The position numbers were made by a program, and so were the translations under genes. Below are positions 1,216 through 60,337 of a stretch of 64,000 nucleotides of DNA, piece by piece. Source of the stretch: an uncultured Caldilineaceae bacterium (GTDB lineage Bacteria; Chloroflexota; Anaerolineae; Caldilineales; Caldilineaceae). The notes below the pieces were generated by a model. It was not told the origin of the DNA, made no database searches, and worked only from the letters and a program-made list of their open reading frames with translations. How positions within the stretch are numbered: the stretch's first letter is position 1; every line of letters begins with the position of its first letter. The stretch spans positions 316 through 64,315 of the forward strand of contig CAZLMM010000024.1 in NCBI GenBank assembly GCA_964560495.1, given 5' to 3'.

Positions 1216-3045
1216 TCAATCCGTAAGGGTGCTTTCGTCTATCAACTGGTGGCGGTGCAGACGAGCGTAGTGACCGTTGTTCGCCAGAAGTTCGATGTGG
1301 CTGCCGTCTTCGATGATCCGTCCTTGCTCCATCACCAGGATGCGGTCGGCGCTGCGGATGGTGCTGAGGCGGTGGGCAATCACCAGGCTGGTGCGGCTGC
1401 GCAACACCCGGGCCAGCGCCTCTTGAATCAGCGCTTCGGTGGCGGTGTCGATGCTGCTGGTCGCCTCATCCAGGATCAACACGCCCTCGGGGCTGAGGGC
1501 CAGCGCCCGCGCCAACGCCAATAGCTGCCGCTGTCCCTGGGAAAGATTTTCGCCATTGGGCAGCACCTGGAAGTCGTAGCAGCCAGGCAGCTCCTCGATA
1601 AAGCGCGCCGCATTGCTAAACTCGGCTGCGCGCCGCACCTCGTCATCGCTCAAGTCGTCGCGATATAGACGAATGTTGAAGGCGATGGAGCCCGCCAGAC
1701 AGATCGGGTCTTGGGGAACGACGGCCACCGCGCGGCGCAAATCGTGCAGGGCAAAATCCTTGATATCCACGCCATCCAGACGCACCACACCCCGACACGG
1801 GTCGTATTGACGCGCCATCAGGCTGACCAGGCTGGACTTGCCAGCGCCGGTTGGCCCGACGATAGCCACACTTTGCCCGGCGGGAATGGACAGGGAGACG
1901 CCGCGCAGCACTGGTTCATCAGGGAGATACCAGAAGTGGACATCATCGAACTCCACCGCGCCGCGCACATGGCGCAGGGGCTGGGGATCGGCGCGTTCCT
2001 TGATGGTGGGCATGGTGTTGAGCAAGGCAAAGATGCGTTCCGCCGCGCCCAGGGCAATCTGCACAGTGTTGTACTCTTGGGAAAGGCGCAACACCGGCTG
2101 GAACGCCCGCTCGGTGTATTGGATGAAGGCCACCAACATGCCCAGCGTCGCCCAGCCCGCCAGGACGCCGCGTCCGCCGCCATAGAGAATCAGCCCCATG
2201 CCAACCGCAGAGAGAATCTCTTGCACCGAAAGAAAGACCGCGCTGCGCCAGCGCAGGTTGATGAGCGCGTCGCGATAGCGTTTGTTATAGCCATCGAACT
2301 CCTGCTCGCTCTCATCTTCGCGGTTGAAGAGCTGCACGACGGTCATGCCATGCACCTGCTCGTTGAGAAACGCGCTGATGCGCGCCTGGGCTGAGCGTTC
2401 GCCGCTGGAAGACTGACGGATGCGCTCCCGAAAGTAACGCGTCACGACTGCAACCAACGGCAGCACGGACAGCGAGAGCAGCGCCAGCCGCCAGTTCATG
2501 GCAAACATCACGGTCACGATGACGATGAGCGTCACCCCCTCCACCAGCACGATGACGATGCTGCGCGAGAGCACCGCATTGAGCTGGTCGATGTCGTTGG
2601 TCAGCCGCGCCACCAGTTCGCCCGTGGGTGTGTTGACCAGAAAAGCCCGATCCAGCCCCAGGATGTGGTTGAAGAGGCGGCTGCGCAGATCGGCCAGGGC
2701 GCGCTGCCCGGCCTGTTGTAAGAAATAGGTGAAGGCATAGGTGAGCAGGTAGATGGCGATGGCGGTTGCGCCATAGAGGATCGTGATCTGCACCAACGCG
2801 GCGACGTCGCCGTCGGCGATGGGGCCGTCAATAGCGACGCTCAGCAAGTAGGGAGGCACAGCGTTGAGGAGCGCGACGCCGGTCATGAGCACCAGCGCGG
2901 CGATCACCCAGCGCTTGTATGGCGCCAGCGAAGAAGCCAACAGCTGAAACAGAGCCGAGTCCTGGTTGGCGAGCTCAGAGAGGCGCACTTTTGCTTCATC
3001 TTCAGTTTCGTCACGGCGTCCTGAAGTTGCTTCAGCCTTCGCCAT
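1216..3045 (-). CDS. ABC exporter half-transporter (fused permease + ATPase), second subunit of a heterodimeric pair
   Basis: ORF 1216..3153 trimmed to ATG at 3045 ('MAKAEATS') because the upstream part overlaps the preceding gene. TM-rich N-half; Walker A 'GPTGAGKSS', signature 'LSQGQRQ', Walker B 'LILDEATS'. Overlaps the upstream partner by 14 nt. Confidence 0.85.
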   Translation of the reverse strand: MAKAEATSGRRDETEDEAKVRLSELANQDSALFQLLASSLAPYKRWVIAALVLMTGVALLNAVPPYLLSVAIDGPIADGDVAALVQITILYGATAIAIYLLTYAFTYFLQQAGQRALADLRSRLFNHILGLDRAFLVNTPTGELVARLTNDIDQLNAVLSRSIVIVLVEGVTLIVIVTVMFAMNWRLALLSLSVLPLVAVVTRYFRERIRQSSSGERSAQARISAFLNEQVHGMTVVQLFNREDESEQEFDGYNKRYRDALINLRWRSAVFLSVQEILSAVGMGLILYGGGRGVLAGWATLGMLVAFIQYTERAFQPVLRLSQEYNTVQIALGAAERIFALLNTMPTIKERADPQPLRHVRGAVEFDDVHFWYLPDEPVLRGVSLSIPAGQSVAIVGPTGAGKSSLVSLMARQYDPCRGVVRLDGVDIKDFALHDLRRAVAVVPQDPICLAGSIAFNIRLYRDDLSDDEVRRAAEFSNAARFIEELPGCYDFQVLPNGENLSQGQRQLLALARALALSPEGVLILDEATSSIDTATEALIQEALARVLRSRTSLVIAHRLSTIRSADRILVMEQGRIIEDGSHIELLANNGHYARLHRHQLIDESTLTD

Positions 3046-4789
3046 GGCCAATCTCCTCGCGCTCCTGTTGCACTTCCCGGCGATACATTGCGGCGTAGAA
3101 GCCATTCTGCGCCAGCAACTCCTCGTGGTTGCCGCGTTCGACAATCTGGCCATGATCCAAAACGATGATCTGATCCGCGTCCACCACAGTGGCGATGCGC
3201 TGGGTCACGATGATGCGGGTGCGCTTGAGTTCCGCCTGGCGCAGCTCACGCAGAATCTCGGCCGCGGTTTTCATGTCCACGCTTGCCAACGCATCATCCA
3301 GCAGCAGCACTTTGGGGTCGCGCACCAGCGCGCGCGCAATTGCGGCGCGCTGTCGCTGCCCGCCGGAGAGGGTCGCGCCGCGCTCGCCCACCGAACTATC
3401 CAGGCCATGAGGCAATTGGGGGAGATCGTTGGAGAGCCGCGCACGATCCATAGCTTGAAAAATGCGCTGGTCTGGCACATAGGAGATGCCTAGGGCAATG
3501 TTGCCGCGCAGGGGCATGTTGAAAAGCAACGACTCCTGGGGTACATAGATCACTGTGCGACGCAGCGCCGCCAGCTTGATTTCTCGCAGGTCGTGGCCGT
3601 CGATGGTCACCCGACCTTCTGTGGGGTCGTAGATGCGCCCCAACAGGCTAATGAGCATACTCTTGCCCGAACCGGTGGGACCGACGATGCCCAGAGTCGT
3701 GCCCGGCGGGATCTCCAGGTCGATATGACGCAGCGCCCACCGCTCTTGGTCTTCCATCCAGACGCCCACATCTTCCATGCAAATGTGGCCCACCAGTTCC
3801 ACATCGGGCGCGTTCTCGGGGTCGGCAATCTTGGGCCAGCGATCCAGCACCTCGCCAATGCGCACCGCGGCTGCGCTGCCCTGTTGCAAACGTTCATACG
3901 CATCAGTGATCTGCTGCGCGCCGTTGTTCAGCAACCCAAGATAGACAATGAACTCCACATACTGACCCACGGTCAGGTCGCCGCCGATGATGAGCATGCC
4001 GCCCACATAGACGACGATTGTCGCTGCCATACGCACCACCAGGCTCGGGATGGGCGAGATCGCACCGCTCTGGAGCACAAAATGGAGATTCTGTTTGACG
4101 TAATTTTCATTGGCGGCGCGGAACGCCCGCCCCACGGCTTCTTCCTGCACATAGGCCATGAGCATTCGCGCGGCGTTCAGGTGCTCTTGGGCAAAGGCGG
4201 AGAGTTTGGCGATCTCCTGCTGGACGACGATGAAGGAGTGCTCCAACACGCGCCCCAATCGCATCTGCACCGCGATGCTCAACAGCAGCATCACGACGAC
4301 CATCACTGCCAGCGGCGGGCTGGTGCGCCCCATGAGCGCGGCGCCGATTAGCAGTAGGAAGAAGGCGTGCATGAACATCTGGAAACCTGCGCTGTAAAAA
4401 CGCCAGATGTAGATGAAGTCGCTCGTGCTGCGCGAGAGTAAATCGCCTGTGCCGTAGGCCTGGCGTGTTTCCCGATCAAAGAGCAGGAGGCGCTGGAACA
4501 TATCCTGGCTCATGCGATAGGTGACGCCCGCAGCGATGTTGCCGGTGAGCATACGCAGGAGATAGCGAAAGAGGGCCACGGTGGCTGCCAGGAGCATCAG
4601 CCCGATGGCATACCAGGCCAGCGCGCGGGGAGTCGTGCCTTCGCTAAGCGCATCCACTGCCATCCCCAGCCACATGGGGCTGAACGCGCTGGCGGCTGCG
4701 CCGATGAAGGCGTAGACTGCGCCGATTGCCAGCGCCCGATAGTAGGGGCGCATGTAAGGGAGGAGAACTTGGAGACCGCTCTTCTGCAT
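3032..4789 (-). CDS. ABC exporter half-transporter (fused permease + ATPase), first subunit
   Basis: 585-aa ORF with TM-rich N-half, Walker A 'GPTGSGKSM', signature 'LSGGQRQR' and Walker B 'LLLDDALAS'. Confidence 0.9.
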   Translation of the reverse strand: MQKSGLQVLLPYMRPYYRALAIGAVYAFIGAAASAFSPMWLGMAVDALSEGTTPRALAWYAIGLMLLAATVALFRYLLRMLTGNIAAGVTYRMSQDMFQRLLLFDRETRQAYGTGDLLSRSTSDFIYIWRFYSAGFQMFMHAFFLLLIGAALMGRTSPPLAVMVVVMLLLSIAVQMRLGRVLEHSFIVVQQEIAKLSAFAQEHLNAARMLMAYVQEEAVGRAFRAANENYVKQNLHFVLQSGAISPIPSLVVRMAATIVVYVGGMLIIGGDLTVGQYVEFIVYLGLLNNGAQQITDAYERLQQGSAAAVRIGEVLDRWPKIADPENAPDVELVGHICMEDVGVWMEDQERWALRHIDLEIPPGTTLGIVGPTGSGKSMLISLLGRIYDPTEGRVTIDGHDLREIKLAALRRTVIYVPQESLLFNMPLRGNIALGISYVPDQRIFQAMDRARLSNDLPQLPHGLDSSVGERGATLSGGQRQRAAIARALVRDPKVLLLDDALASVDMKTAAEILRELRQAELKRTRIIVTQRIATVVDADQIIVLDHGQIVERGNHEELLAQNGFYAAMYRREVQQEREEIGHGEG

Positions 4790-36689: not shown

Positions 36690-37687
36690 GATGGGATCAG
36701 GTTGTCCACTGTTTGTTCGATGACGCCGAAGAAGCAGCACCACTGTCCCTCGATCACCGATGGTCGCGAGCGCAATCCAAAGACGACACCGTCGCGCGGG
36801 GCGGTCAATTCGGCCAACACATCGCCATAGAGATTGTAAATGACGCCCAGTGGCGTTCCCTGGGCGACAGGAGTCTCGAAGGGCAGGTCGCGATTGCCCA
36901 CAAAGATGCCCGTCGCCGGCGCCAAAAGCGCAATCTGATAGCCCTGCCGCCACGCCGGCGCATAGGCAGGCGTTCCTTCGATCATCTTATAGTGGCGCAT
37001 GACATTGAGGTAGCTGGCGGCCAGGTCCTCGGCCACAACATGGAAATCGCCTGTCAGCGAGCGGCAGTTGCCGCCCAGTTCCACTGTAATGCCGCCCTTG
37101 CCCAGAGACGCTATTATGGAGCTGGGGTTGCCGCCGCCCACTGGGGAACGAAAGACCAGGGACCACTGGGGCCCCATGGCCGCAGCCAATTCCAGGCTGA
37201 CCGGGTTGTCCGACGCAAAGATCATGTGCGCCAGGTAGGAATGTTCGCCGCCCGAATGGACAGCGATTTGCAGGTCGCAGTTCTCTTTCATAGCCAGCCA
37301 GTGAGCATAGGCGATGCGTTCGGTGGGATAGCCTTCGGCCTTGCCGGGATAGATGCGGTTCATATCATAGCTGAAGGTGTCCAGCGGGTCGCCGCGCGTG
37401 CCGGCCGTGAAAGCGTTCACGTTCATGGCGGGCACTGCCACGATTGTTCCGCGTAGGCGTTGCGGGTCGATCTGCTTGAGCGCCAGAAAGATCGAAAAAG
37501 CGCCTTCCGGCTCATCGCCGTGGGTGGCGCCGTTGATCCAGAGCCGCGGCCCTTCTTCCACCCCCCGTGCAACGATAATGGGCATGGCGTAGGGGCGCCC
37601 GGCCATATCAACGCCCGCCTGAATGACGCCCCGTTTCATCTCGCCCGGCATGACCGTCGTCACACCAATTGTCATTGCTTCTGTCAT
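36686..37687 (-). CDS. succinylglutamate desuccinylase/aspartoacylase family deacylase
   Basis: 333-aa ORF with zinc-site-like 'NGATHGDEPEG'. Family assignment is from recall. Confidence 0.75.
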   Translation of the reverse strand: MTEAMTIGVTTVMPGEMKRGVIQAGVDMAGRPYAMPIIVARGVEEGPRLWINGATHGDEPEGAFSIFLALKQIDPQRLRGTIVAVPAMNVNAFTAGTRGDPLDTFSYDMNRIYPGKAEGYPTERIAYAHWLAMKENCDLQIAVHSGGEHSYLAHMIFASDNPVSLELAAAMGPQWSLVFRSPVGGGNPSSIIASLGKGGITVELGGNCRSLTGDFHVVAEDLAASYLNVMRHYKMIEGTPAYAPAWRQGYQIALLAPATGIFVGNRDLPFETPVAQGTPLGVIYNLYGDVLAELTAPRDGVVFGLRSRPSVIEGQWCCFFGVIEQTVDNLIPS

Positions 37688-37696
37688 AGTTGCTCC

Positions 37697-38890
37697 CTAT
37701 CGATGTCGCGCCAGCACGCCAGCCATCCGTTCCAGCGCCAACGCCAGTTGATCCTCTGGCTGCAATACGCTGATGCGCAGCCAATCCACCCACTTTTCGC
37801 CAAAGGCGGTGCCCGGAAAGATGAGCACGTGCCCCTCTTTGAGAAGGAGATAAGCCAGCTCAAAGGCAGGAATGCCGCTGGAAGCAGCGTTGGTGTAGAC
37901 AAAGAATGCACCCTGCGGCTCGCCATAGGTGAAGCCCAGATCGGTCAGTCCGCTCTTCATCAGCGCAATGCGACGCCGGTAGATTTCCCGATACTCAGCC
38001 ACCACGTCCTGCGGACCGGTTGCCGCGGCCAGGGCTGCGTACTGGCTCACAGCCGACAGGGGGCCGGTCGTGGCAGCTTTCACCGCTGTCATTGCCGCAA
38101 TGAAGTCCGCCGGCGCGGCCGCATAGCCAACGCGCCAGCCGGTCATGGCGTAGGTCTTGGAAAAACCGCCCAACGTAACTGTGCGCTCAAACATCCCCGG
38201 CAAACTGGCGAAGCTCAATTGCTCGGCAGGGGGATAGATGTATTTCTCGTAGATTTCATCGCTGATGACGATCAAGTTATGGCGCTGTGCGATCTCGGCA
38301 ATTGCTCGCAGATTGGCCGGACTGACCACCGCCGAGGTGGGGTTGCTGGGCGAGATGAGCAGGATGGCCTTGGTCTTGGGCGTGATGGCCGCCTCCACCT
38401 CTGCGGGCCGCAAGTCGAAGTTGTCTTCCGGGTAGGTGGGCACAAGCGTCATCTTGGCCCCGGCCTGATGGATCGCCTCGTCGTAGCTCGTGTAGCGCGG
38501 GTCAGGCGCCAGGATTTCGTCGCCCGGGTCGAGAAGCGTCTGCATGAGCAGGTAGAGCGCCTCCTGCCCGCCATCGGTGATCAGAACATCGTCGCGTGTC
38601 AGCGGGATGTTGTTCTGGTCGTGCAGGTTGGCCGCCACTGCTTCGCGCAGAGCTGGCAGGCCAGCCGTAGGAACGGGCAGATCAGCCCGTCCATCCAGTA
38701 TGGCCGCGCGAGCTGCAGCAATGACATGTTCTGGCGTGTTGAGGTCTGGGTCGCCGCGGCCCAGAGTAATCGCGTCGGGAATTTGCCCCGCCAGTTCCAT
38801 GAGAGCATAGCGCAGTTTGACGCCGTCAGCGGCGACTGCGCGCAGTTCGTCTGGCGTCACAATCTGACCTGGTGCGACTTTCTGGCTCAT
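37697..38890 (-). CDS. class I/II pyridoxal-phosphate aminotransferase
   Basis: Motifs 'SPSNPT', 'SDEIYEK' and PLP-lysine 'GGFSKTYAMTGWRVGY'. Confidence 0.85.
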   Translation of the reverse strand: MSQKVAPGQIVTPDELRAVAADGVKLRYALMELAGQIPDAITLGRGDPDLNTPEHVIAAARAAILDGRADLPVPTAGLPALREAVAANLHDQNNIPLTRDDVLITDGGQEALYLLMQTLLDPGDEILAPDPRYTSYDEAIHQAGAKMTLVPTYPEDNFDLRPAEVEAAITPKTKAILLISPSNPTSAVVSPANLRAIAEIAQRHNLIVISDEIYEKYIYPPAEQLSFASLPGMFERTVTLGGFSKTYAMTGWRVGYAAAPADFIAAMTAVKAATTGPLSAVSQYAALAAATGPQDVVAEYREIYRRRIALMKSGLTDLGFTYGEPQGAFFVYTNAASSGIPAFELAYLLLKEGHVLIFPGTAFGEKWVDWLRISVLQPEDQLALALERMAGVLARHR

Positions 38891-38893
38891 TCA

Positions 38894-39982
38894 CTAACGT
38901 CCTTTCACCTGGCGCAGCCCAACCTCGAGCGCCTCCAGCGCATCGGCCAGCGAGCCGGAAGGCGCGGCAATGCGGAGCATGCCGGGCTGGCCGAGCAACG
39001 CGCCGTCGCCCACCAGGACGCCGGCAGAGCGGCACGCACCAGCCGCAGCGCTGCTGTCACCCACCTTGGCCGCAACGAAGGCCACCGTGTCCGGTTCCAG
39101 GTAAGCGATCTCAAGGCGGTCGAGGAGCGCAAGGATCGCTTCCATACGCTCGGCGTATTGGGCTTCGATCTCGCCTTCATCCACTTCGACGGCAGCCGCC
39201 AACGCCGCATACTGGCTGGCAGCCGCTGTGCAGATGGTGATGGATTGCTTGAGATCGCGCACCGGCGTAAAGACGCGCTTTGCGCCGGCGACCCAACTGA
39301 CGCGCCACGCCCCCAAGCCCGGCGCCTCGGCAAAGCTGCCGATAGTCAGTGTGCGCTCCGCCATCCCCGGCAGCGATGCAAACCGCACGAAGGGCGCCTC
39401 CGGCCGCACAGGGCCGACGCTCTCGTCTGCGATGACGGCAAGACCCGCGGCGGCAACCCACTCAGCCAGACGCTGCAAAAGCCCTGGCTGATAAACCTGA
39501 CCCGTTAGCGGGTGTGGATTGCTCACGATCAGCAGACCGCCGTGGATCTGCGGCAGTTCGCCCGCCAGATCGAGCACGTGTACGCGCGCGTTGGCGAACT
39601 CCAACCCGGCGCGATAGACCGTGGGCGCCGGCGCCGGCAGATAGACGTCCTGCCCAGCAGCCAGGCCGCGCACGGCTACATAACGCGCCTCGGCCACTCC
39701 GCCGCAGATGGTCGCCAGATTCTCGTCCATCGCCGCCCCAGCCGCAGTCAGGGATGACGCCACCGCACGGCAGAGCGGCGCGATGCCTGGGCGTCGCGTG
39801 TAATGGTCGCACAGGTGGCGTTCGATGGCGTCGATGGTTGACTCGCGCAGCGCGGGCGAGGTGCTGCTGGCAAGAAACTCTTCGCTCAGGTCGATCACAT
39901 CATCGTGCACCGGCGGTGGGACAGGCAGACTACGAGCGCGCTGCGCCGCCATGCCGCCGAGAATGGAAGAACCCATGGTCAT
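38894..39982 (-). CDS. aminotransferase-fold paralogue lacking the PLP-binding lysine (predicted non-catalytic or repurposed)
   Basis: 362-aa ORF collinear with class-I aminotransferases ('SNPHPLTG', 'ADESVG', 'GAWRVSW'). The position of the S-x-S-K lysine reads 'GSFAEAPGLGAWRV', with Glu codon gag at 39326..39328. Confidence 0.7.
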   Translation of the reverse strand: MTMGSSILGGMAAQRARSLPVPPPVHDDVIDLSEEFLASSTSPALRESTIDAIERHLCDHYTRRPGIAPLCRAVASSLTAAGAAMDENLATICGGVAEARYVAVRGLAAGQDVYLPAPAPTVYRAGLEFANARVHVLDLAGELPQIHGGLLIVSNPHPLTGQVYQPGLLQRLAEWVAAAGLAVIADESVGPVRPEAPFVRFASLPGMAERTLTIGSFAEAPGLGAWRVSWVAGAKRVFTPVRDLKQSITICTAAASQYAALAAAVEVDEGEIEAQYAERMEAILALLDRLEIAYLEPDTVAFVAAKVGDSSAAAGACRSAGVLVGDGALLGQPGMLRIAAPSGSLADALEALEVGLRQVKGR

Positions 39983-51531: not shown

Positions 51532-52731
51532 ATGGAACCAATGACAACGCCAACCACGCCGCCGCTCTCGCGCAAGATTCAGTCTCTGCAAGGGGGCGCC
51601 GAGACATCCTTCACACGCATGTTGCGCCTGGCAAGCCAGACGCCCAATCTGATTTCTCTGGGCCGCGGCGATCCAGACGTGGCGACGCCGCCGCACATCG
51701 TGGAGGCCGCAGTCAAGGCCATGCAAACGCGCCATGTCAACTACACGCCGCCGCCAGGGATGCCGGCGCTGCGCGAAGCCATCGCCGACAAGCTGGCGCG
51801 AGAAAACGGCCTGCGCTATGACCCGATGAGCGAAGTCCTGGTCACCTGCGGCGCGCAGGAGGCCATTTCGGTCATCATGCAGACGCTCCTTGACCCAGGG
51901 GACGAGGTGCTGCTGCCAGACCCCTTCTACACCGCCTACGAGATGGCGATTGGCCTTGCCCATGGCAAGGTGGTGCATGTGCCCACCTACGCAGAACAGG
52001 GCTTCGAGGTGCAGCCCGCGGAGATTGCGGCGCGCATCAACGAACGTACGCGCATGATCGTATTGGTCTCGCCCAATAACCCGACCGGCGGCGTGATCTC
52101 GGCAGCCAGCCTGGAAGAAATCGCCGCGCTCGCCGTTCGCCACAACCTTATCGTTGTCTCGGATGAATTGTATGAAAAGGTGATCTTCGACGGCGCGCAG
52201 GCGCCCAGCATCGCCCGCCTGCCTGGGATGCGTGAGCGCACCATCATCATCAACGGCTTTTCCAAGACCTATTGTATGACCGGTTTTCGCGTGGGCTATC
52301 TGGCCGGGCCGGCAGCGTTGATGGCAGCCCTCTACGAGCCGCACCACATCCTTACCATCTGCGCGCCCACCGCCAGCCAACACGCAGCCCTGGCCGCCTT
52401 GGCCGGCGACCAGGGCTGCGTCGATGAGATCGTCGGCGTCTTCGCCCACCGACGCCGCGCCCTGCTCGACGGCTTGCGCAGCGTCGGCGTTCCCTTTCCC
52501 CATCCGGCAGGCGCGTTCTTTGCCTTTGGCGACATCCGTGCATCCGGCATGACCTCGGCGGATTTTGCGGTGAAGGTGTTGCAGGAGGCCGGCGTGCTGG
52601 TCTTCCCGGGGACGCAGTACGGGGCGTGCGGCGAAGGCTTTCTGCGCATCTCCTATCTCGCGCAGGTTGCGAACATCGAAGTAGCGGTGGAACGGTTGGG
52701 GCGAGTCTATCACAGCGCGCGGGGAGGGTGA
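51532..52731 (+). CDS. class I/II pyridoxal-phosphate aminotransferase
   Basis: Motifs 'SPNNPTGG', 'SDELYEK' and 'NGFSKTYCMTGFRVGY'. Close paralogue of 37697..38890 and 59165..60337. Confidence 0.85.
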   Translation: MEPMTTPTTPPLSRKIQSLQGGAETSFTRMLRLASQTPNLISLGRGDPDVATPPHIVEAAVKAMQTRHVNYTPPPGMPALREAIADKLARENGLRYDPMSEVLVTCGAQEAISVIMQTLLDPGDEVLLPDPFYTAYEMAIGLAHGKVVHVPTYAEQGFEVQPAEIAARINERTRMIVLVSPNNPTGGVISAASLEEIAALAVRHNLIVVSDELYEKVIFDGAQAPSIARLPGMRERTIIINGFSKTYCMTGFRVGYLAGPAALMAALYEPHHILTICAPTASQHAALAALAGDQGCVDEIVGVFAHRRRALLDGLRSVGVPFPHPAGAFFAFGDIRASGMTSADFAVKVLQEAGVLVFPGTQYGACGEGFLRISYLAQVANIEVAVERLGRVYHSARGG

Positions 52732-59164: not shown

Positions 59165-60337
59165 ATGAACAATTCGCCTCTGATGCAGGCGCTGGCCGGG
59201 CGCATGGTGGAGGAGGATGTTTCTTTTCGCACCAGGATGTTGGAGACCGCCGCCAGCCTGCGCGACGTGATCGCGCTGGGGCGCGGCGACCCGGATTTTC
59301 ATACGCCCCGGCATATTGTCGAGGCGGCCAAGCGCGCCATCGACCAGAATCAGCACCACTACACCCATCCCGCCGGCCTGCCCCAGCTGCGCGCAGCTAT
59401 CGCCGACGCCCTGTGTCGCGAGAACAATCTGGACTATCGCGCCGACGAGATCATCGTGACCGCGGGCGTGCAAGAGTCCATCATGTTGTGTATGTTGGCC
59501 CTGGTCAATCCGGGCGATGAAGTGTTGATCACGTCGCCGCGCTTCACCACCTATGACCAGGCAGTGGTCATGTGCGGCGGCAAGCCCGTCCCCGCGCCCA
59601 CCTTCGAGGAGCACGATTTTGCCCTCATGCCAGAAGAAATCGAGGCGCGCATCACGCCGGCCAGCAAAGCGCTGGTGCTGGTGACGCCCAACAACCCCAC
59701 CGGCGCAGTGACGCCGCCGGCGGTCATCCGCCAGATCGCCGACTTGGTCGTGCGTCACAATCTCGTGTTGATCAGCGACGAGATCTACTCGAAGCTCATC
59801 TATGAAGGCTCCGAGCATCTCTCGGTCGCTTCGCTGGCTGGCATGAAGGAGCGCGTCATCACGCTCAACGGCTTCTCCAAGTCCTACGCCATGACCGGTT
59901 GGCGCGTCGGCTATCTGGCTGCGCCGGGCGAGTTCATCCAGCGGCTGATCGAACCGCGCCACACCCTGAGCATCAACACTAATACGCCTGCCCAATATGC
60001 GGCGCTGGCTGCGCTCACCGGCCCGCAGGATGTAGTGGAGGCCATGCGCGAGCAGTACGGCGAGCGTCGCGCCTATCTAATGAAGGCGCTCAAGGAGATG
60101 GGCTTCACCTATGGTCATCCGGGCGGCGCGTTTTACATCTACACCAACGTGGCGAGCACGGGAATGCCGTCGCCGCAGTTCTGCGAGGAGCTGTTGCGCC
60201 GGGCGCAGGTGATGATCTTCCCGGGCAGCATGTTTGGCGACGACTCGGATCGGTATGTGCGCATCAGCTACTTGCAGCCCATCGAGCGCATCGAGCAGGC
60301 AGTCGAGCGTATACAGCGATTCATGGAAAGCCTATAG
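59165..60337 (+). CDS. class I/II pyridoxal-phosphate aminotransferase
   Basis: Motifs 'TPNNPTGA', 'SDEIYSK' and 'NGFSKSYAMTGWRVGY'. Confidence 0.85.
   Translation: MNNSPLMQALAGRMVEEDVSFRTRMLETAASLRDVIALGRGDPDFHTPRHIVEAAKRAIDQNQHHYTHPAGLPQLRAAIADALCRENNLDYRADEIIVTAGVQESIMLCMLALVNPGDEVLITSPRFTTYDQAVVMCGGKPVPAPTFEEHDFALMPEEIEARITPASKALVLVTPNNPTGAVTPPAVIRQIADLVVRHNLVLISDEIYSKLIYEGSEHLSVASLAGMKERVITLNGFSKSYAMTGWRVGYLAAPGEFIQRLIEPRHTLSINTNTPAQYAALAALTGPQDVVEAMREQYGERRAYLMKALKEMGFTYGHPGGAFYIYTNVASTGMPSPQFCEELLRRAQVMIFPGSMFGDDSDRYVRISYLQPIERIEQAVERIQRFMESL

Follow-up and report, generated by a model that had tools for sequence, protein, structure and literature searches.

Why should a bacterium keep, directly upstream of an aminotransferase gene, a second aminotransferase-like gene whose product has lost the lysine that holds the cofactor? 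The question is raised by a 64,000-nucleotide stretch of DNA from an uncultured Caldilineaceae bacterium (Chloroflexota; contig CAZLMM010000024.1, positions 316 to 64,315), referred to here as the window. In it, a gene at 38894..39982 encodes a 362-residue protein of aminotransferase fold that is without the lysine which forms the Schiff base with pyridoxal 5′-phosphate (PLP). We call this gene and its product psi, and the Lys-bearing aminotransferase encoded immediately downstream its partner; all positions given for the two lie on the minus strand. Aminotransferases are textbook homodimers. We suggest, with a probability of roughly 0.7, that psi is instead a noncatalytic subunit of an obligate heterodimer with its partner, where it would complete the one active site that the two share, a proposal that comes from sequence comparison.

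By both sequence and fold, psi is a member of the class I/II aminotransferases. PF00155 is its sole Pfam match (E 1.1e-18, 68 bits against a cut-off of 19.7, residues 28-353). Its AlphaFold2 (AF2) model has a predicted local distance difference test score (pLDDT) of 84.9 and a predicted template-modelling score (pTM) of 0.84, and Foldseek pairs it with the class-Ib aminotransferases 6F5V, 1GD9 and 1DJU at TM about 0.8; since the model is confident and the matches are of this quality, the fold is predicted to be intact. No NCBIfam model reaches its cut-off on psi (the top one, GntC_guanitoxin, scores 92 bits against 415), and neither Pfam nor NCBIfam holds a model that tells members of the psi family apart from true aminotransferases. 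A DNA-binding domain of the GntR winged-helix type carried by MocR and GabR was looked for in psi and none was found, Pfam reporting PF00155 alone. The public gene call (P0001, 360 residues) begins at the second in-frame ATG, two codons further in.

A first-pass annotation, made from the letters of the window, had read psi as an aminotransferase paralogue in which glutamate replaces the PLP lysine, and in its particulars it proved accurate. BLASTP aligns psi with the neighbouring protein (37697..38890) at 31% identity, pairing FAEAPGLGAWRVSW with FSKTYAMTGWRVGY, and the Lys-to-Glu replacement falls on Glu219 (codon gag, 39326-39328). The insertion that it reported in the 'NPTG' block is there (SNPHPLTG in psi, SPSNP-TS in the partner), as is the altered tyrosine block (ADESVG against SDEIYE). 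So are the two junctions it described: a 3-nucleotide spacer to the aminotransferase gene (38891..38893, between the TAG at 38894-38896 and the ATG at 38890) and a 4-nucleotide overlap with the upstream VOC gene, whose stop shares the ATGA at 39979..39982 with the psi start.

A search of 5.8 billion proteins returned about 80 relatives of psi at 38-78% identity, followed by a steep fall to ordinary aminotransferases at 30% identity or less. The residues discussed below carry aspartate-aminotransferase numbering, read across from alignments with the partner and with 1DJU. In the degenerate Schiff-base loop of psi, GSFAEAPGLGAWRVSW (residues 215-230, 39293..39340), as seen in the BLASTP pairing and an 85-member family alignment, Ser255 has become Ala218, Lys258 has become Glu219, and Arg227 occupies the Arg266 position. 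Across the 85 relatives the Lys258 column reads E20 G20 D16 A10 S6 N4 H4 R3 V1 K1 and is, judging by this alignment, hypervariable and without constraint. Because lysine stands there in one relative alone, its absence is best described as a trait of the psi family and no artefact of alignment; the column check that the first-pass annotation proposed thus returns a family that is Lys-less in all members except P0015. That protein, a 68% identical orthologue from a Logan assembly, is the sole member with Ser-Lys at the Schiff-base column (GSFSKSPGLGAWHV). Its loop (FSKSPGL) sits in a protein that is still without the Tyr225, stacking-aromatic and Arg266 equivalents, and the lysine is probably a neutral Glu-to-Lys change (GAG to AAG).

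The rest of the cofactor pocket has been dismantled along with the lysine, so that psi fails as a PLP enzyme on its Schiff-base lysine and on most of the phosphate- and ring-binding set. In the ADESVG segment (residues 185-190, 39413..39430) the Asp222 equivalent, Asp186, is kept (Asp in 83/85) and the Tyr225 equivalent is gone, the column holding A, V, G or D and, in the window psi, Val189. The ring-stacking aromatic has become Pro120 in PAPAPTVY (residues 116-123, 39614..39637), which aligns with PDPRYTSY of the partner; family-wide this column is P49 L8 A6 plus others. The Arg266 column is Q50 H17 R8 N6 (Q, H or N in 73 of the 85), and the Asn194 equivalent, Asn155, is partly kept (41/85). 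The window psi itself retains the Asn194, Asp222, Arg266 and Arg386 equivalents and lacks those of Lys258, Ser255, Tyr225 and the stacking aromatic. Lys245 of psi, in an LKQ motif, was considered as a migrated catalytic lysine and rejected: its column (K530 of alignment A3) is invariant and holds lysine in the Lys258-bearing partners as well, which marks it as a general class-Ib residue.

Class-I aminotransferases are dimers in which both chains build each of the two active sites, one chain providing the Schiff-base lysine and other PLP binders, the other Tyr70 and parts of the substrate entrance. In aspartate aminotransferase, the phosphate of PLP in either site is hydrogen-bonded by Tyr70 of the opposite chain. 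Searching the literature for class-Ib residues that reach into the other chain's site yielded nothing useful, and the role given here to Tyr70 is that in aspartate aminotransferase. It is this trans-acting tyrosine that psi has preserved. Aligned with THYGPNIG of 1DJU, the DHYTRRPG loop (residues 59-66, 39785..39808) places Tyr61 at the Tyr70 position, and tyrosine fills 83 of 83 occupied positions in the 85-member alignment; the loop lies within the most conserved block of psi and includes a family-specific arginine, Arg64.

The partner is the reverse case. This 397-residue protein (37697..38890) scores 240 bits with PF00155, matches 1DJU/1GD9 at E 5e-79, and keeps all the cis PLP residues, including Lys245 (38156-38158) at the Lys258 position. 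In its GRADLPVPTAG loop (residues 67-77, 38660..38692), a proline and a one-residue insertion occupy the place of Tyr70. The first-pass annotation took this neighbour for a canonical enzyme; that description holds for the lysine and the cis PLP residues and fails at Tyr70, and because the Tyr70 equivalent is missing, the partner, as read from its sequence, is itself incomplete.

The two losses are complementary wherever proteins of the window's kind were compared. In one joint alignment, all 29 psi proteins taken from genomic loci lack Lys and have Tyr, and all 26 partners of the window's clade, from loci and fusions, have Lys and lack Tyr, as do all 116 homologues that are at least 59% identical to the partner. 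Among 120 unselected full-length library representatives (50%-identity clusters), 78 have both residues, 38 have Tyr without Lys, 4 have Lys without Tyr, and none lacks both; Tyr70 is thus kept in 78 of the 82 Lys-bearing library relatives, unlike the partner clade. The window supplies an internal control in two stand-alone class-I aminotransferases on the plus strand, 51532-52731 (RHVNYTPPPG with GFSKTYCMTGFR) and 59165-60337 (NQHHYTHPAG with GFSKSYAMTGWR), both of which keep Lys258 and Tyr70.

We suspect, then, that the catalytic roles have been divided, the partner holding Lys258 and the cis PLP residues and psi holding the trans-acting Tyr70. Because the losses of Lys and Tyr are complementary, a heterodimer would contain one complete site, made of the partner's cis residues and Tyr61 of psi, perhaps with Arg64, and one site that is doubly dead. 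The proposal implies that psi and its partner should bind each other, that Tyr61 should reach the partner's PLP, and that the aminotransferase by itself should be impaired. Such an arrangement could have been reached by a ratchet: once psi was dead, the partner's own Tyr70 would have served only the dead site and would have been free to drift, and once that tyrosine was lost the partner would have depended on psi.

Two of the conserved parts of psi, its N-terminal arm and the loop around Tyr61, have counterparts in class-I enzymes that act on the other subunit. Residues conserved in at least 95% of the 85 members include A13 and R15 in the N-terminal arm; D59, H60, Y61, R64, P65, G66 and L70 in the Tyr70 loop; and E98, R100, L107, D186 and core-strand residues between 202 and 233, Arg100 being family-specific and situated on the former phosphate-binding helix. 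The last conserved block, RDLKQSITIC...SQYAALA (residues 242-262, 39197..39259), contributes R242, L244, K245, Q246, T249, I250, Q257, A259, A260 and L261, and from the offset in residue numbering alone we infer that positions 242-261 match the region of the trans-acting residues Arg292 and Ser296. What follows, the C-terminal part of the small domain (residues 263-362, 38897..39196), evolves faster, and many lineages do without it: 11 of 20 orthologous loci have deleted it, their proteins ending directly after QYAALA with every conserved block retained, and it is likewise gone, with the blocks retained, from sister forms of 235-238 residues. These truncations are clean deletions that preserve the coupled start of the partner gene. 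A change in the partner's loop that tracks the truncation of psi was looked for, and none was seen.

The genomic arrangement suggests that the two proteins are made, and work, together. A Lys-bearing aminotransferase gene lies directly 3′ of psi in each of 29 unfused loci (the window, L001-L024, L026 and L028-L030), usually with a 4-nucleotide overlap or a gap of 2-12 nucleotides. Twenty of these loci (L001-L020) come from species-representative genomes, all of them metagenome-assembled genomes (MAGs) of Chloroflexota, and there the partner orthologue follows psi in 20/20, at a spacing of −4 or +3 to +6 from stop to start wherever the gene calls are clean. In the window, the 3-nucleotide spacer points to translational coupling, and an AAAGGA lies about 10 nucleotides 5′ of the partner ATG. 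The pairing extends beyond close orthologues. The partner homologues P0213, P0205, P0221 and P0209 (59-64% identity) each have, directly 5′, a Lys-less open reading frame (ORF) of 235-238 residues that overlaps or abuts the aminotransferase start and is barely detectable by Pfam. When 1.84 billion cluster representatives were searched with a profile, many more distant Lys-less relatives came up, and in the three whose surroundings we followed (P0245, P0232, P0238) an aminotransferase comes directly after each, with the rest of the operon rearranged. One genome, which also contributes locus L028, carries a second and different pair (L030:1120-2226 and 2239-3399, G401 contig C262): its Lys-less protein has THYVDVPG and GELWPGVGLESLLIGY, and the aminotransferase, 12 nucleotides on, keeps Tyr70 (NDYTPAEG).

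In at least four cases, and probably six, the two genes have become one. The products, of 616-655 residues, carry psi at the N terminus and the aminotransferase at the C terminus, the same order as the separate genes, and between the short Lys-less module and the Lys-bearing aminotransferase runs a linker of about 25-50 residues. P0230 (653 residues), P0373 (641), P0374 (631) and P0240 (630) are the clear cases, the last three being about 39-40% identical to P0230 over their N-terminal halves; two more proteins, P0277 and P0335, probably belong with them. On contigs of 44 kb and 1.4 Mb, respectively, P0230 and P0240 proved to be unbroken ORFs. The AF2 model of P0230 has a pTM of 0.84 in spite of a disordered linker (residues 255-279, pLDDT <50), which suggests that the two modules are packed in a defined way. 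In alignment A3, MAFFT had put the short psi sequences on the catalytic half of the fusion; the model was hence built with alignment A4, which omits them and in which the psi half comes from four sequences. Foldseek with this model returned single aminotransferase chains alone (TMq about 0.54), a result uninformative on domain packing.

Selection has maintained psi. Nei-Gojobori estimates of the ratio of nonsynonymous to synonymous substitution (dN/dS) for 15 locus pairs range from 0.10 to 0.36 for psi and from 0.06 to 0.13 for the partner, values that place psi under purifying selection relaxed two- to fourfold relative to the partner; within psi the C-terminal small domain stands at 0.23-0.56 and residues 1-262 at 0.12-0.29. 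In a tree of 137 sequences, 51 of 51 full-length Lys-less proteins lie beyond one branch (SH-aLRT 99), so that the psi family is, on this tree, of single origin, and 45 of 46 Tyr-less partners group together in a clan of their own (SH-aLRT 94). These clans lie next to each other; the smallest clan that joins them includes 10 representatives with both Lys and Tyr, and they are for that reason not resolved as sisters. The window genome has one psi only.

These results are also what became of the first-pass view that psi is unlikely to be a pseudogene: the dN/dS values, the intact frames and the single-clan family bear it out, and disruptions scattered at random among orthologues, which that annotation would have taken as a sign of decay, are absent from the cleanly assembled loci. 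Frame changes do split several genes of the operon, and not psi alone, in L012, L014, L017 and L018; in L017, the single locus whose psi frame is broken, psi is cut short and several other genes of the same contig are broken too, and L012 and L017 are nanopore-derived MFD MAGs. These breaks look like assembly errors rather than gene decay. The first-pass annotation had offered two roles for psi, a regulatory or scaffolding subunit or an enzyme of different chemistry. Purifying selection, the 29/29 pairing, the fusions and the complementary Tyr70 favor the subunit, and different chemistry now has less behind it.

Several observations weigh against an obligate heterodimer. The partner of the Lys-less protein in L030 keeps Tyr70, so complementarity is not universal, and that pair may show the system at an earlier point in its evolution. 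P0015, a close orthologue, has the lysine back at the exact column. The Y70F mutant of aspartate aminotransferase is reportedly partly active, Tyr70 being helpful and not essential; a Tyr-less homodimer could therefore work, or an arginine of the partner's GRAD loop could replace the tyrosine. The pTM of the fusion model is indirect evidence of packing. Finally, the system is rare: proteins of the window psi type score at E ≤ 1e-52 in 3 of 401 sampled Chloroflexota genomes, and on that count their distribution is rare and patchy.

Other explanations of psi must be set against the same evidence. It is unlikely, in our estimation, that psi acts independently, by binding a ligand, by regulating, or as an enzyme of the same pathway that does not use PLP, and is merely the operon-mate of a homodimeric aminotransferase. 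Conservation of Asp186, Glu98 and the newly invariant Arg100 at 95% or more within a supposedly dead pocket fits a retained ligand site, the partner does have every cis catalytic residue, and operon neighbours are frequently mere pathway partners; yet such independence leaves unexplained why Tyr70 was lost in the partner clade alone and persists in 78 of 82 other relatives that have the lysine, and why the top-conserved motif of psi is a loop that acts on the other subunit. Nor does it explain the repeated fusions in one order or the adjacency of the pair through the shuffling of operons. Whichever reading is right, we doubt that the psi pocket binds PLP or pyridoxamine 5′-phosphate (PMP) without a Schiff base, or a pathway metabolite, as an allosteric or second, non-transaminase site; the idea that it is occupied comes from those same three residues, which are conserved even in the truncated forms.

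If psi does bind the aminotransferase, it might do so as a modulator, inhibiting, stabilising or switching the specificity of an enzyme that does not need it as half of a site. The evidence of pairing, coupling and fusion speaks for this as strongly as for a shared active site, and there is reportedly a precedent in the deoxyhypusine synthase of trypanosomatids, in which a dead paralogue allosterically tunes the active one. We nonetheless consider a modulator improbable, for permanent fusion to an inhibitor is hard to credit and a Tyr61 that is invariant while the partner's tyrosine is lost points to a direct contribution to the active site. Far less probable still is a psi that is decaying, or that is a Lys-less PMP-dependent enzyme of the ColD/E1 dehydratase type. 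The weak Pfam score of 68 bits, a rate of evolution two to four times that of the partner and the many truncated orthologues are what decay might produce, and a few distant members with His at the Lys column recall the PMP enzymes. Against decay, the pseudogene test on psi is negative, with frames whole in the clean loci, dN/dS well below 1 and a monophyletic family that spans 35-78% identity, and the truncations are clean and spare both the conserved blocks and the start to which the partner is coupled. As for PMP chemistry, His is not conserved at the Lys column (4 of 85), the window psi has Glu there, and the phosphate and ring binders that such an enzyme needs are gone. The dN/dS values, the 85-member alignment and the tree have already gone far towards refuting this pair of possibilities.

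A division of one active site between a Lys-less and a Lys-bearing chain has precedents outside the aminotransferases. Serine palmitoyltransferase LCB1/LCB2 (SPTLC1/2) and the alpha and beta chains of the glycine decarboxylase P-protein are built in this way, with one site per pair. Their likeness to psi and its partner is a functional analogy: they belong to other families (alpha-oxoamine synthases and GcvP) with other chemistry and are not known to have any sequence kinship with the psi pair beyond fold-type I. Within PF00155, an ACC synthase lysine mutant and tyrosine mutant reportedly complement each other in a heterodimer through the shared site. The psi pair looks like a naturally fixed version of that complementation, which in ACC synthase concerns laboratory mutants or isozyme mixtures of complete enzymes. 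The proteins closest to psi and its partner are the class-Ib enzymes, such as those of P. horikoshii (1DJU/1GD9), the T. thermophilus aspartate aminotransferase (1BJW) and the Arabidopsis prephenate aminotransferase (5WMH/6F5V), all homodimers with Lys258 and Tyr70 in each chain, whereas psi lacks Lys258, Ser255, Tyr225 and the stacking aromatic and its partner lacks Tyr70.

Among aminotransferases, the nearest parallel is SerTA (Ser4/Ser5) of Serratia sp. ATCC 39006, presented in December 2024 as the first heterooligomeric aminotransferase, in which each heterodimer of the short, Lys-less Ser4 with the full-size Ser5 has one active site, where Asn189 and Arg191 of Ser4 bind the PLP phosphate of Ser5 in trans (PMC11726168, FEBS Lett 2024). 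We found no other published heterooligomeric aminotransferase in the searchable literature. Like the psi pair, SerTA is encoded by tandem genes for a short, Lys-less, mostly large-domain fold-type-I protein and a full aminotransferase, and Ser4, whose complex has been shown experimentally, has the same reduced layout as the truncated psi orthologues; the conserved adjacency of Lys-less and complete aminotransferase genes that marks a SerTA-type system is found here in 29/29 loci and in the fusions. The two systems nevertheless differ in family and setting. SerTA is a sugar aminotransferase, similar to GDP-perosamine synthase, that belongs to a biosynthetic cluster and works with a carrier protein, whereas the psi pair belongs to subgroup Ib of PF00155 and to a peptide and amino-acid catabolic operon; the window psi is full length, natural fusions exist, and the live partner chain is without its own Tyr70. 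Psi tested negative for homology to the PF01041-like Ser4 and Ser5, matching PF00155 alone, and no SerTA chain is among the Protein Data Bank (PDB) sequence matches of the psi profile at E ≤ 1e-5.

If the proposed heterodimer is real, the principle of the dead subunit would reach the large class I/II family, beyond that of SerTA. It would do so through a monophyletic and diversified family, to which at least 38 of the 120 full-length 50%-identity clusters near the query belong. The forms now in hand, a partner with Tyr70, a partner without it, a truncated psi and a fused chain, could be arranged as an evolutionary series that illustrates a ratchet from homodimer to obligate heterodimer. There is a practical side as well. 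Members of the psi family are annotated in public records as 'aspartate/methionine/tyrosine aminotransferase' although they are incapable of being one, and a partner expressed alone, for example in work on the pathway of the DUF4438 operon, may be a crippled protein.

No NCBIfam model reaches its cut-off on the partner; the top match is GntC, a model for a PLP-dependent gamma-hydroxy-arginine cyclodehydratase (302 bits against 415), and the distant psi relative P0245 also touches VioD. Given these two matches, the partner may not be a simple transaminase. The operon in the window is under a GntR regulator and includes, besides psi and its partner, genes for peptidases, AstE-like and M20 deacylases, two DUF4438 proteins, the VOC protein, an SDR and a 2-hydroxyacid dehydrogenase. 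In the rearranged loci L024, L026, L028 and L029 a core of VOC, dehydrogenase, psi and aminotransferase genes has not been separated, the dehydrogenase being Ldh_2, SDR or 2-hydroxyacid dehydrogenase; the stretch of L024 that was examined has no DUF4438 pair. An antisense ORF of 682 residues (window 37460-39508, plus strand) runs across both aminotransferase genes, matches no family, and is the usual artefact of high-GC DNA. Two of the fusion genes, those for P0230 (L025) and P0240 (L027), lie outside a DUF4438 operon, beside PucR-like regulators (GGDEF_2/HTH_30), the former also beside M20 peptidase and HpaB/flavin-reductase genes; from this different company, it appears that the two-module enzyme has been recruited into other pathways.

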